DNA from: Carcharhinus longimanus
Taxonomy: Eukaryota
NCBI GenBank assembly: GCA_030264375.1
Contig: JASCQW010000162.1
Location: 41,583,786-41,647,785, forward strand
DNA: 64,000 nt
Reading direction: 5' to 3'
Made by a program: the position numbers and the translations under genes. Below the pieces are notes generated by a model that was not told the DNA's origin, ran no database searches, and was given only the letters and a program-made list of their open reading frames with translations. This document shows positions 29,513 through 61,364 of the stretch, piece by piece; position 1 is the stretch's first letter; every line of letters begins with the position of its first letter.

Positions 29513-29983
29513 CCATATTTCACACTCTTTACAACTGCATCAAACTTTTCAGACCTCTGCTTCCACATTTCCAAGTGATCCTGCACCTCTGTCATCTCAC
29601 TTAAATTCTGAAAGGAGCTTAGACTATCTCAAGGCTAAGATGAATTGAAATGGGATAATTATAACCTCCAGCAATGTAAATTATACTATCCTCATAAATA
29701 CTAGGTTTCAGTTACGTGAAGCATTTTCCTTCTGGAACCCTGGTTATAATTCTTCACGCTCATTTCTCAGCCAAGCATTTCATGTGATAAAAGGTGTTAT
29801 CGATGATGGTTGTGATTTCACAGTAATATGGTGAAAAGATCTGAATATTTAAAGCTCAAGGCTTCTGAAAAGATTTGGATACATGATAGAAAATGCATTG
29901 GTCAATTTTCCAGTCCTGGTGCCTTCAGCAGAGCTGGATCACTTCACATGGCAGAGTGGATTGGATTTTGAATTATTGCAGTA

Positions 29984-30118
29984 CCACAACAATTTTCATT
30001 TGTGTGCTATCTTTAAAGTAGCAAGATGTCCCAAATCAATCCACTGCGATGTCATCAAAAACATTAAACACTGAGCTACCGAAGGAGATGTTAGAGTAGG
30101 TGACCAAAGGCTTTGTTA
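29984..30118 (-). mobile_element. L2 LINE extreme 3' tail
   Basis: Reverse complement AAAGCCTTTGGTCACC...TTTGGGACATCTTGCTACTTTAAAGATAGCACACAAATGAAAATTGTTG matches the L2 tails at ~2400-2526 and ~16490-16622. Confidence 0.7.
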
Positions 30119-30307
30119 GTGATCTGTGCACGGATGCAATAATGGTCATGAGCGTAGTTGTTGGCAGCATCGTCCTTGCCAGTGAAGAGGGCGGAACTGT
30201 TGATGATAGATTCCAGTACGGATTTCGTCAATCACAATTGATTCCAAATCTACAAAGACTGTCCTGGGCACATGTTTCCCAGCTCCCCTCTCACAGAAGA
30301 CAGTGTT
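30115..30307 (-). pseudogene. TUBA: Processed alpha-tubulin pseudogene fragment (about residues 50-116)
   Basis: Translates [39 protein letters not shown]/(8-nt deletion, frameshift)/[23 protein letters not shown] versus alpha-tubulin [65 protein letters not shown]; continuous across codon 76, where vertebrate TUBA genes have an intron. Confidence 0.93.
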
Positions 30308-31849
30308 AATGTAATTAATATGTATAGCCAGTTAAGCTGTGATAGGATGGCAGCAAAAATTGTGGGGAATACTTTGGAAAGCTACGGAGAAAGTGATACA
30401 ACCATGATAATATATGTTTGAAAACTTGCTGAAGAACTGGAAATAGTCCAAAATGTTTGACAGTCATTGCATATGTTGAGGGGAGAGAAATAGATGAAAA
30501 ATCCTTTGCAGAGGAAATAAAACCTCTTTGCTTAAGAGTGTAGGGCAGCAATCGGCTCATGTTTAGAACGAATTAGCTATTATTTAAGATGGATTTAAGG
30601 AGGGCTCCCTTATCTTGGCACTCCAAAAGACAACAAAACAGCTTGCCTGGCAGGTGGGAAAACTCAACAATGTGTTCAATACCTGCCTGATCTGGAAACA
30701 GGAGAGGGAGAGAATGGAAGACATTTAAAAATCTATTCTCTTGGGATTATCCAATAATACCACAGAGCAGATTGATGGCAGAAAAATATATGGTCTGAAG
30801 TGTTGTGTGCCAATGCATCCTTATTTACTGTTTACTCATGCTATGTCCACACACACTTTCCAGCCTCTTCCATGTATCTCCTGCATAACTAGTATCTGAG
30901 CTGAACGCTTTGATGCGATTTACAACTGAATGCTTTGAAGCAATTACATTTTCCAAGTGCCTCCCATCACCACCACCCACCCCACCTCCCCAAAGAAATC
31001 ATTGAAATCCAACCTTCTTAGGTACTCAAGATAGGCTACTGGTTGGTCACAATTGTCATTATTTAATTGCCCTTCAGCTTACAACACTGCAAAATTAATT
31101 TTCTGCCTTCACTCACACTGTCATACAGTACCAATGGAAGAGTCATGAACTATATGTTGTGACTTGGAGAGTAAGTGCAGCTGAGCAAATTACACTTTTG
31201 TAACTGATGCTCAAGAGAAAAACCAAATGAAACTATTCTCTGCCTGTTACAGTTGCTTAATTTGAAAGTAGATTTGGAGAACAGGTTAGAGGGGAATTTG
31301 ACCTTGTCCCAAGTTTTAAAATCCTGAGATATTGTTCTATTCATGTTACTGGAAAGGAACAGGATTCAGTTGTGGATTCAAATATTTTATTTAACAAGAA
31401 AGTGGCTTTAACTAAATGCTACTTAACTAGCTGAGTCCTTGCCCTTGTAGATGGTCTTTACCTTTCTGCCAGCAGAGGCCAGTAAACCTGGCTACCAAAC
31501 CATCAAACTTCACTGAATATTTATTATTTAGTTATACTATCACCTTCTTTGACACAGAACCTGTTGTTTAAAGTACACCTGCAATATTTTACTCCAAAAG
31601 AGATAGATCATTAAAATAGAATATTGACACATGCTCATAGCATAGTTCAGGTCACAAAGGAATCAACTTCTTGCTCAATCTTTATTGACTTATAGTCCAA
31701 CCCTAATTAGGCTGAACTTTAACCAGTAATAGTTATTTCAACAATCAGAATAAAATGAGGAGAGAACTCTGATCTAAACTAAAATCTTCCACCATTTAAG
31801 TTTTTGAATCAACTATTTAATTTAGCTGATTAAAAAAACACACTTTCAT

Positions 31850-32155
31850 GGAGGTCTTATGGCACAGTGGGTAGCATCCTTGCCTCTGGGTTGGAAGCTC
31901 TGGTTCAGGCCCAAGTCCAGGACTTGATAACCAAGGAAGATGCATCCATAACATGGTCAAACAGGATAAACATCAACCTGCAAATCATTTTAACATCTGC
32001 CAATAGCAGGTGGTAAGAGCAGGAGAGATTCCTGGTCAGTCATGTGATGGAAAGAAAGTTTGAGTTTCAACCATGACTATCCATAGCTCCAGGCTACAAC
32101 ATGCAAGTACACGTTGCCACAACAATCTGGCCTCTCCAAGTTACACACTACTACC
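31850..32155 (+). mobile_element. tRNA-derived SINE (head shared with 29187, different tail)
   Basis: GGAGGTCTTATGGCACAGTGGGTAGCATCC...GAAGCTCTGGTTCAGG...GAGAGATTCCTGGTCAG. Confidence 0.7.
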
Positions 32156-51203: not shown

Positions 51204-51314
51204 AAGAAGTCTTGCAACAGCAGGTTAAAGTCCAACTGGTTTATTTGGTAGTAAATGCCACTAGCTTTTGGAATGTTGTTCCTTCATCAGGTGAGCGGAG
51301 AGTTCTGATCACAA
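51204..51314 (-). mobile_element. Terminus of a second Penelope-like family with minimal hammerhead
   Basis: Minus strand CAC-CTGATGA-A-GGAA-CAACA-TTCC-AAAA-GCTA-GTG...AATAAACCAGTTGGACTTTAACCTGCTG. Confidence 0.7.
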
Positions 51315-52550
51315 GGTTTATTCTCCCTGGAGAGACGAAGGTTGAGGGGCGACTTGATAGGAGTCTACAATATTATGAGAGGCATGGACAGAGTGGGTAG
51401 TCAGAAGCTTTTACCCAGGGTGGAAGAGTCAATTACTAGGGAGCACAGGTTTAAGGTGNNNNNNNNNNNNNNNNNNNNNNNNNNNNNNNNNNNNNNNNNN
51501 NNNNNNNNNNNNNNNNNNNNNNNNNNNNNNNNNNNNNNNNNNNNNNNNNNNNNNNNNNNNNNNNNNNNNNNNNNNNNNNNNNNNNNNNNNNNNNNNNNNN
51601 NNNNNNNNNNNNNNNNNNNNNNNNNNNNNNNNNNNNNNNNNNNNNNNNNNNNNNNNNNNNNNNNNNNNNNNNNNNNNNNNNNNNNNNNNNNNNNNNNNNN
51701 NNNNNNNNNNNNNNNNNNNNNNNNNNNNNNNNNNNNNNNNNNNNNNNNNNNNNNNNNNNNNNNNNNNNNNNNNNNNNNNNNNNNNNNNNNNNNNNNNNNN
51801 NNNNNNNNNNNNNNNNNNNNNNNNNNNNNNNNNNNNNNNNNNNNNNNNNNNNNNNNNNNNNNNNNNNNNNNNNNNNNNNNNNNNNNNNNNNNNNNNNNNN
51901 NNNNNNNNNNNNNNNNNNNNNNNNNNNNNNNNNNNNNNNNNNNNNNNNNNNNNNNNNNNNNNNNNNNNNNNNNNNNNNNNNNNNNNNNNNNNNNNNNNNN
52001 NNNNNNNNNNNNNNNNNNNNNNNNNNNNNNNNNNNNNNNNNNNNNNNNNNNNNNNNNNNNNNNNNNNNNNNNNNNNNNNNNNNNNNNNNNNNNNNNNNNN
52101 NNNNNNNNNNNNNNNNNNNNNNNNNNNNNNNNNNNNNNNNNNNNNNNNNNNNNNNNNNNNNNNNNNNNNNNNNNNNNNNNNNNNNNNNNNNNNNNNNNNN
52201 NNNNNNNNNNNNNNNNNNNNNNNNNNNNNNNNNNNNNNNNNNNNNNNNNNNNNNNNNNNNNNNNNNNNNNNNNNNNNNNNNNNNNNNNNNNNNNNNNNNN
52301 NNNNNNNNNNNNNNNNNNNNNNNNNNNNNNNNNNNNNNNNNNNNNNNNNNNNNNNNNNNNNNNNNNNNNNTGCCGGGGGAGGTAGTGGAAGCGGATACAG
52401 TAGTGACTTTTGAGGGTGTCTTGACAAATACATGAATAGAATGGGAATAGAGGGATATGGTTCCCAGAAGGATAGGGGGTTTTAGTTCAGTCAAGCAGCA
52501 TGGTCGGTGCAGGCTTGGAGACTTGAAGGGCCTGTTCCTGTGTTCTTTGT
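51315..52550 (+). mobile_element. CR1/HER1 LINE 3' fragment spanning a 912-N gap
   Basis: LRGDLIGVYNIMRGMDRV..QKLLPRVEESITREHRFKV; tail GAAGGGCCTGTTCCTGTGTTCTTTG. Confidence 0.9.
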
Positions 52551-52574
52551 ACTCCATTGGTTTTTGATGCTTTA

Positions 52575-53000
52575 ATGACTTTTATTGAAGACTCTCTGAC
52601 CTATGTGTTGGGATGACATAAGGGGGGTCAGCTGCCTTGTCATCAAGCAACCATGTCCAGTGCTAGTCCTTGGAGGCTCCTCTTATGAACTGGTGCAAAA
52701 TAAAGTATTGTATAAGCAGGCTGTTTTAGCAGGCAATTACCAAAGTGACCTTCTCATCATGGTCAAACACAAAGTGCACACAGAGAGAGTTGGAGACCCT
52801 GTGATTGTGGTGTTGCTTCCACTGACATTGGGGACCCACAGAGCTGTCCAAACCCTGGTTTAAGGCTACAGGCAAAGGAGGTGGCACAATTCTGTCACTA
52901 CCCCTTTTGTGAAGTAAAGCCTCCTGATTCTGTGTTCCTTGCTCATTGTAACAGAAAGATCCTCTTGGACTATGCCCTTCAAAGGAGTGCTCCCTTTCTC
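52575..53000 (-). mobile_element. Internally deleted PIF/Harbinger transposase remnant
   Basis: MSKEHRIRRLYFTKGVVTELCHLL; GFGQLCG; NHRVSNSLCVHFVFDH resembles NRKGFHSLNVQLVCDH; WLLDDK..LTPLCHPNT resembles WLLGDKGY...LMTPLRNP. Confidence 0.8.
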
Positions 53001-59964: not shown

Positions 59965-60555
59965 GAGGTGAGTTACTCGCCACAAGATTTTTAGCCTCTG
60001 ATTTGTCCTTCTAGCCATTTATATGGCTAGTCCAGATTAGCTTCCGGTCAATAGTAAGCCCCTAGGATGTTGACAGTAGGGTATTCATTGACGGTATTAC
60101 CATTGAATGTCAAGGGGTTGTAGTCAGATTTTCTCCTGTTAGAGATGGTCATTGCTTGCCACTTGTGTGGCAGGACTTTTACTTGCCAGCTGTCAGCCCA
60201 AGCCTGGACATTGTCCAGATCTTGTTGCATTTGAACATGCATTGCTTCTGTATCTGAGGAGTCATGCATGGTGCTGAACATTGTGAAATTATCAGCAAAT
60301 ATCCTCACTTTTCTAATGGAGGGAAGGTGATTGATGAGACAGTGGAAGACCATTGGGCCTAGGACACTACCTGAACAATTTCTGCAGTGATGTCTTAGAA
60401 CTGAGATGAATGTCTACCAACAATCACAACCAATTTCCTACATGCCAAATATGGCTCCAACCATCAGACAGATTTCCCACTGATTCTCAATGACTCCAGT
60501 TTCGCTGGGACACCTGGATATCTTGCTGTCCAAGGGCAGTCACTATTACTTCACT
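59965..60555 (-). mobile_element. CR1-group LINE RT fragment
   Basis: IFADNFTMF...MQQDLDNVQAWADSWQV...PHKWQAMTISN (ORF 60048-60353). Confidence 0.85.
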
Positions 60556-60713
60556 GAGTCCAGGCTACGAGCTAATTTCATGCTTACTTCTACACAGGTT
60601 TCTGCAAATGCTTAAACTTACCCAGGTCCCTTGTCATGTGATCCTTTAAATCACATTGTTGACAGTACTGTTCTCCTGTCCCACAGTTCCACATATGCTA
60701 AACACTCTTAGTA

Positions 60714-61091
60714 CAATAGCATCCAAACATCCTTAATATGCAGCCCCCAAACACCCTTGCAATACAGCATCTAAATATTCTAACGGTTCAGCCCACAATC
60801 ATCCTTATAATACAGCATCCAAATACCCTTACAATATAGCCCCCAATCACCCTTACGATATAACATCCAAATACTCTTATAATACAGCATCCAAATACCT
60901 TACAATACAGCCCCCAATCACCCTTACAATACAGCCCCAATCACCCTTATAATACAGCATCTAATTACCCTTACAATACAGCTCCAATCACCCTTACAAT
61001 ACAGCATCCACTTATCCTTACAATACAGCCCCAATTACCCTTTCATAACAGCATCCAAATACCTTTACAATACAGCCCACAATCACCCGTA
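60714..61091. repeat. Minisatellite of 16 units of about 22-24 bp, mostly alternating A/B variants
   Basis: A = CAATACAGCATCCAAATACCCTTA, B = CAATACAGCCCCCAATCACCCTTA. Confidence 0.92.
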
Positions 61092-61364
61092 TAGTACAAT
61101 CATGTAATATTGCCAACTGAACAAAAGCTTTGTTCCTTGCATGGTCTATTGCCATACAGCATCTCTTCCCCTGCCTCATTATATCCCTCCTTTCCCCATC
61201 CCTTACATGCAAACACCCTTGTTTTTTTCCCATTAGAACGGAAGACAGAGGAACTCTACCCACACACCTTCTCAGATTTGTTGACAATATAGCTTGATAG
61301 GAAACAGTTTACATATTATAAACAAGATGCTGCAGCAATCACTCCTGCAATGTGAAACACTGTT

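Follow-up and report, generated by a model that had tools for sequence, protein, structure and literature searches.

An mRNA-derived alpha-tubulin fragment joined flush to an L2-type LINE tail in the genome of Carcharhinus longimanus

Results

A spliced alpha-tubulin fragment runs directly into an L2-type tail

The window, a 64,000-nucleotide stretch of Carcharhinus longimanus DNA (contig JASCQW010000162.1, positions 41,583,786 to 41,647,785), contains a short piece of alpha-tubulin coding sequence joined on the same strand to the 3′ end of a LINE. The features of this locus, in window coordinates, are as follows.

30310..31850, no strand assigned: upstream flank, free of repeat matches and of any L2 5′ remainder
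30229..30309, minus strand: exon-2-derived tubulin part, codons ~49/50-76 (E=1e-18; 67/78 nt identical to exon 2 of C5761)
30228..30229, minus strand: splice junction between exons 2 and 3 in codon 76, without intron (own-genome genes are intron-bearing at codon 76)
30115..30228, minus strand: exon-3-derived tubulin part, codons 76-116, in which an 8-nt deletion near 30190/30189 shifts the frame (84/112 nt identical to exon 3 of C18287)
30115..30119, minus strand: junction overlap, reading CTAAC in the window, TTGAT in the tubulin parent and TTGAC in the L2 family, with both frames in register (from alignment)
29984..30119, minus strand: 5′-truncated L2-type LINE 3′ end (profile match E=3e-21; 26-28% from the family majority)
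29523..29983, no strand assigned: downstream flank, free of repeat matches and of any tubulin remainder

Alpha-tubulin codons ~50-116 are encoded at 30309-30115 (minus strand), over about 190 nt, in agreement with the original prediction of a frameshifted minus-strand segment. The first 40 residues read from 30307 correspond to alpha-tubulin residues 50-89 (PDB search, E=3e-13), and residues ~92-116 (25 residues) are read in a changed frame past the 8-nt deletion, which was located by alignment to tubulin exons of the same genome. The 5′ edge of the fragment is fuzzy, and its true position may be up to ~25 nt further out. The fragment is unbroken over codon 76, where the alpha-tubulin genes of this genome have a phase-1 intron; for example, exon 2 ends in GATCG/GT in one gene (L002) and GATTG/GT in another (L003), and exon 3 starts AG/AT. 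Because it has no intron at this position, unlike those genes, the fragment is derived from a spliced mRNA, as had been proposed. Both of its ends are cut, it comprises only two partial exons, and it has no 3′ UTR, no poly(A) and no detectable target site duplication (TSD). The frameshift and the missing start make a function unlikely, and the fragment is dead.

The six CpGs to which attention had been drawn are indeed present, but they do not appear to be a legacy of the source gene: none of the six sits at a CpG of the parent, and all five parent CpGs have been lost. Compared with the paralogs, one (Arg79) is clearly ancestral, one is possibly so, and the remaining ones are apparently new. 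At least six CpGs occur in 17 of 315 equal-sized bins of the window, and we see no sign in these counts of special protection.

The best-matching parent is a divergent paralog

Nine paralogs were compared over exon 2, and C5761 matched best, with 67/78 identical nucleotides against 53-60/78 for the 8 others. Over exon 3, where 11 were compared, C18287 was best with 84/112 nt, against 69-79 for the other 10. In codons 105-114 C18287 matches 23/30 nt and the other paralogs 13-17, and the diagnostic GCA CAG ATC is common to the fragment and C18287 alone among the 11 exon-3 sequences. The best match is a divergent, intron-bearing paralog located elsewhere in the same genome, and the window copy itself suggests that C5761 and C18287 are parts of one gene. 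This candidate has open frames and intact splice sites. An intron-bearing host parent had been predicted, and the best matches are indeed exons of the shark's own genome that are flanked by introns. A parasite or contaminant tubulin was rejected on these matches, and because the locus is part of a 136-Mb scaffold and recurs in 4/4 sequencing runs of other organisms.

The candidate parent reads RYCFGAQ at residues 107-113. The contig C18287 stops at ATT GAT, in codon 116, which is also the junction codon (L020:1473-1478); this is probably a coincidence of assembly breaks. Two further small contigs, C12261 and C40315, also end within tubulin exons. A pattern search of the assembly gave no contig overlapping the C18287 end (codon 117 on), and no link was found between C18287 and gaps in the examined part of the C32 cluster. 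At residues ~34-48, several alpha-tubulin paralogs (L002:1359-1581, L036, L038 and L040) have loops that diverge strongly.

The tail belongs to a dispersed family of LINE stubs

The tail contains the last ~9 ORF2 codons, a stop at 30093-30091, and a 3′ UTR with a decayed stem and a GTT-type end. Positions 30113-29964 match a profile of 30 other family copies with E=3e-21, a value that serves as an internal check because the motif from which the profile was built resembles the window tail. The prediction of an L2-type tail on the same strand and without spacer is upheld; in fact the two halves overlap by 4-5 bases. The family is dispersed (140 and 340 exact motif matches in two genome searches), and 12 strong and 13 weak other matches occur in 404 kb fetched for other reasons. 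Longer copies reach back into the C-terminus of an endonuclease plus RT ORF2; one of them (L080) shares 40% identity with the C-terminal end of P0126, a sequence with RVT_1 and Exo_endo_phos_2 domains. We provisionally take the family to be L2 from the pattern of the ORF2 C-terminus and tail.

Short stubs are common, since 14 of 30 copies (picked by their 3′ motif) start further 3′ than the window tail. A SINE with a shared head was rejected, as 15 short copies had no head in common. The family-majority 3′ end has complementary arms, which fold in two of three other copies with z of only -0.8 and -1.2; in the window tail the stem is lost (z 0.1).

The halves share a short word at the junction, and no remainder lies nearby

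At the junction the tubulin sequence reads ATC ATT GAT, the family CTC TTT GAC CAA G and the window ATC ACT AAC AAA G, so that the overlap TTGA(C) consists of 4-5 decayed bases, with two mismatches in the window. The TTGACC microhomology originally proposed survives as a shorter word: the candidate parent reads ATT GAT, and the word that it has in common with the family sequence TTTGACCAAG is TTGA (4 nt; 5 if the ancestral codon was GAC). Random joins of tubulin and L2 sequences give an exact overlap of at least 4 in 1.6% of cases and of at least 5 in 0.5%. The overlap points to a homology-guided join and is compatible with template switching, break repair and deletion alike. As a by-product of the overlap, the final ORF2 codons of L2 are read in the same frame as tubulin (AQITNKAFGHLL and a stop, 30121-30091, minus strand).

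Tubulin resuming past the tail, or L2 resuming upstream, was looked for in the flanks, and neither was found. For tubulin, 10 kb of each flank was searched with a complete retrocopy and a contig carrying exon 4, without a match; the 1.5 kb upstream of the unit likewise contains nothing of the L2 5′ part. Around the 325-nt unit, the best shared word that might represent a TSD is 5 nt, which is equalled by 78% of random pairs. L2 TSDs are described as short, 1-9 bp (PMC4476161), and would not outlast 15% decay, so that an absent TSD is weak evidence. Splicing into L2 was rejected, because the junction lies in the middle of exon 3 (codon 116; the exon ends at 125). A multi-copy composite element was likewise rejected, with no second tubulin-plus-tail copy among the 5 and 14 matches listed (both lower bounds).

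An ESM Atlas search returned unnamed clusters only. No host-gene Pfam match was obtained from 59 of 80 long open frames submitted, a survey in which short exons could be missed; the one match was a piece of RT (RVT_1, E=7e-6) at 60051-60413 (minus strand), which adjoins a short internally repeated stretch at 60700-61100. Elsewhere in the window, ~1.1 kb within 51309-52581 is AT-rich and open in six frames, and is probably a simple tandem array.

The fused unit predates the separation of the relatives sampled

Contigs from 4/4 sequencing runs of other organisms (C, D, G and H), at most 8% diverged, bridge the junction. In organism G the full 1.4 kb is covered by a single contig that differs at 114 letters (8%). 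The 40 substitutions listed, of 199 in these relatives, include none at the junction. Within this divergence reach of ~8%, neither an empty site nor an L2-alone site was found in the four runs, and none had one half only; the halves thus stay together in relatives, as had been anticipated. Therefore, the fused unit predates the splits of C, D, G and H. Organisms G and H have 13 extra bases at 29943, and in organism D a 19-base stretch is missing from the L2 tail at 30100.

The tail appears older than the tubulin half

The fragment and its candidate parent differ at 37/187 sites, with 18/122 at non-degenerate and 19/65 at degenerate positions. Polarisation by the paralogs assigned 26 changes to the copy and 7 to the parent, with 3 ties, and from this asymmetry the candidate parent looks constrained. 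Changes on the copy lineage amount to 29/184 over all sites (15.8%, CI 11-22%) and 25/172 (14.5%) once CpG sites are set aside. The tail, for which CpG-type columns were excluded throughout, differs from the family column majority at 34/120 sites with 41 other copies, at 31/114 with 58 other copies, and at 28/108 (26%) with ambiguous columns dropped. The 58-copy set leaves out 11 of 30 first-search loci whose 3′ part is missing or interrupted; several of these are in the 41-copy set, where they score high. Tests of half against half gave p=0.009-0.046 (Fisher p=0.009, 0.025 and 0.028, the last for 28/108 versus 25/172).

The family itself gives a second yardstick. In a middle region unused for selection, its divergence is 297/1214 and 147/588 (24.5-25%), or 22% once gap-adjacent columns are dropped. 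None of 58 copies is less than 17% diverged, and the motif with both CpGs kept was absent among 100 matches listed. The family therefore looks like one old wave, ~22-25% diverged. At the per-base rates of the family, the tubulin half should have gathered 39 non-CpG changes, where 25 were seen (P=0.005); with parent changes included, 29 non-CpG differences stand against the 39 predicted (P=0.035).

By these measures the tubulin half is ~55-65% as diverged as the tail and the tail's family (p 0.005-0.05 by test), and the tail looks clearly older than the tubulin half, a difference of moderate strength that depends on the family majority. The comparison draws on ~180 and ~110 sites, with the pooled majority standing in for the source element; counting 4-7 tail differences as subfamily letters raises p to 0.05-0.17, and setting the family age at 20% gives P=0.09. 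An L2 subfamily matching the window letters was sought, and 7 other matches to a window-biased motif were not united by any clear group of letters. The original prediction had named an equal age of the two halves as its own test, and this is not supported at 14.5% for tubulin against 26% for the tail (p=0.005-0.05). Past purifying selection could lower the tubulin figure, although this would call for a longer working retrocopy and hence would again imply two steps.

Other retrocopies in this genome end without an L2 tail

None of five other intron-less copies in the fetched loci (3 alpha-tubulin and 2 EF1A) carries an L2 tail. For example, a full-length intron-less alpha-tubulin copy (C171, L049:4380-5850, minus strand) extends from the 5′ UTR to AATAAA without such a tail, and has a 277-codon open stretch followed by frameshifts. 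Another (C122, L223:4300-7300, plus strand) is broken by insertions, and a third is a fragment between assembly gaps (C1, L050:4875-5221, minus strand). An intron-less, frameshifted EF1A copy (L213:1402-2640, minus strand, and L218; C162 near 120.96 Mb) lies ~3.5 kb from an intron-bearing EF1A on the same strand, and a further intron-less EF1A copy is on a small contig (L215). The corresponding search for the GAPDH family yielded a single match and revealed no retrocopy. Retrocopies clearly form in this genome without L2 tails. The wider suggestion of an L1-independent route to retrocopies in sharks is not borne out by this sample, in which 0/5 are L2-tailed and one copy is full length, ending after AATAAA. 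The sample is small and the searches favour best matches, so that a rare L2 route is still compatible with these data.

Discussion

How the two halves came together

Since the tail appears older than the tubulin piece, a two-step join is likelier than joint copying. We estimate a probability of roughly 0.6 that microhomology attached a younger tubulin cDNA to an L2 stub that was old by then; the L2 stub would have inserted first, an order suggested by the divergences, and the cDNA would have been attached later through the 4-5 shared bases. How this second step took place can be proposed only tentatively. The route we favour, at distinctly less than even odds, is RNA-templated repair of a germline break, in which a broken end within the old stub would have annealed to the TTGA(C) of a tubulin mRNA or cDNA, ~190 nt would have been copied, and the far end would have been joined upstream with loss of any L2 5′ part. 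Features of such a patch are found in the fragment, namely two cut ends, no poly(A), no TSD (weak at such age) and microhomology. A longer ordinary retrocopy that landed upstream of the stub and was later clipped by microhomology-mediated deletion is a less probable version of the two-step join. We roughly estimate, from the density of 12 strong and 13 weak matches per 404 kb, that a random break would fall in a co-oriented tail ~0.5-1% of the time. LINE chimeras are counted in tens per hundreds of thousands to millions of copies in published sets (PMC4476161, PMC13174262). Set against each other, these figures make one-step and two-step origins about equally likely beforehand, as a rough estimate, and with the age gap added two steps are favoured several-fold. 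Against the two-step join, its scenario must assume a clean deletion, because no L2 5′ or tubulin remainder is nearby; the shape of the unit, a 5′-truncated cellular RNA on a short same-strand L2 stub, resembles the platypus U6-L2 chimeras; and 4/4 relatives carry both halves, none L2 alone.

These same features are what a one-step chimera would explain, and it was this origin that the original prediction put forward. Starting from the tail of its own RNA, the L2 RT would have copied ~135 nt, moved at TTGA(C) onto a tubulin mRNA and added ~190 nt of it, and the product would have integrated as a single unit; a stringent L2 RT would then have left its own tail for a protein-coding mRNA and established a piece of spliced tubulin in the germline with no need for L1. 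The mRNA origin, the same-strand tail without spacer and the microhomology (1.6% by chance) all stand, as do an intact-looking GTT end, the lack of either half's remainder nearby and the presence of both halves in 4/4 runs, and there is a precedent in the 5′-truncated U6 on short L2 of platypus (40 copies) and lizard (PMC4476161). We nevertheless regard it as doubtful. The ages it would make equal are unequal (25/172 versus 28/108, or 14.5% against 26%, P=0.005-0.05), 0/58 family copies are as young as the tubulin half, and no clear subfamily accounts for the extra differences of the tail, the closest copy, itself picked by similarity, sharing 10/34. Moreover, no TSD is detectable, and none of the five other retrocopies is L2-tailed. 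Two other orders of events seem very unlikely. A 5′-truncated L2 might have inserted into an existing retrocopy with microhomology at its 5′ junction, the tubulin 3′ part being removed at or after insertion; 5′-truncated LINEs are described as often having microhomology with the target, and target truncations occur (PMC4245944), yet this requires tubulin older than L2, the opposite of the measurement, and no tubulin resumes beyond the tail. Hardly more can be said for a transduction, in which a parent gene or allele with an L2 in exon 3 would have given a spliced, L2-tailed transcript that was retroposed whole (5′ transduction). This would yield an old tail with a younger tubulin half, and C18287 covers the parent exactly as far as codon 116, the junction codon. 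However, the parent looks constrained (7 changes on its lineage, 26 on that of the copy, 3 ties; open frames, intact splice sites), two other contigs end inside tubulin exons as well, and a decayed tail would presumably be a poor substrate for a stringent RT, with no young family member found.

Significance and comparison with known systems

The fused unit is a real structure, single-copy as far as searched, and dead. As the product of a two-step join it would matter little, being an ordinary genomic fossil that shows spliced mRNA pieces entering the germline. It also illustrates that a flush, co-oriented junction of mRNA and LINE with microhomology is no proof of template switching unless the halves are dated. 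Should the one-step origin be true, L2 template switching would extend from U6 snRNA to mRNA, and exon capture in L2-rich, L1-poor genomes would be worth a genome-wide screen. A single dead 190-nt fragment is insufficient to establish a retrogene route.

L2 template switching onto cellular RNA has already been described for U6 (Doucet et al. 2015, PMC4476161). Like the U6-L2 and U6-Mon-1 chimeras of platypus and lizard in that report, the window unit has a 5′-truncated cellular RNA immediately followed by a short L2 3′ end in the same orientation; unlike them as described there, its partner is a protein-coding mRNA, no TSD was found and the halves are unequally diverged. Searches of main texts in the open-access literature turned up no mRNA-L2 chimera. 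In the mRNA/LINE-1 chimeras (Law and Burns 2026, PMC13174262; a GPD2 fragment on L1, PMC1920257) an mRNA fragment likewise lies 5′ of a co-oriented LINE, but as presented in these sources they involve L1 and mostly splice-site joins and first exons, whereas the window has L2 and a join in mid-exon 3. With ordinary processed pseudogenes the fragment shares intron loss, decay and a parent elsewhere in the genome; it differs in having no 3′ UTR, poly(A) or detectable TSD and only two partial exons. Break patches provide the remaining comparison. Spliced-mRNA patches at double-strand breaks in mouse zygotes have been attributed to RT-product-mediated repair (Ono et al. 2015, PMC4516963), and class 2 templated sequence insertions have also been described (PMC5110952). 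As portrayed in these accounts, such patches resemble the window fragment in being an internal mRNA piece cut at both ends, with the intron skipped, no poly(A) or TSD and short microhomology. Unlike them, the window event is ancient and fixed in the germline.
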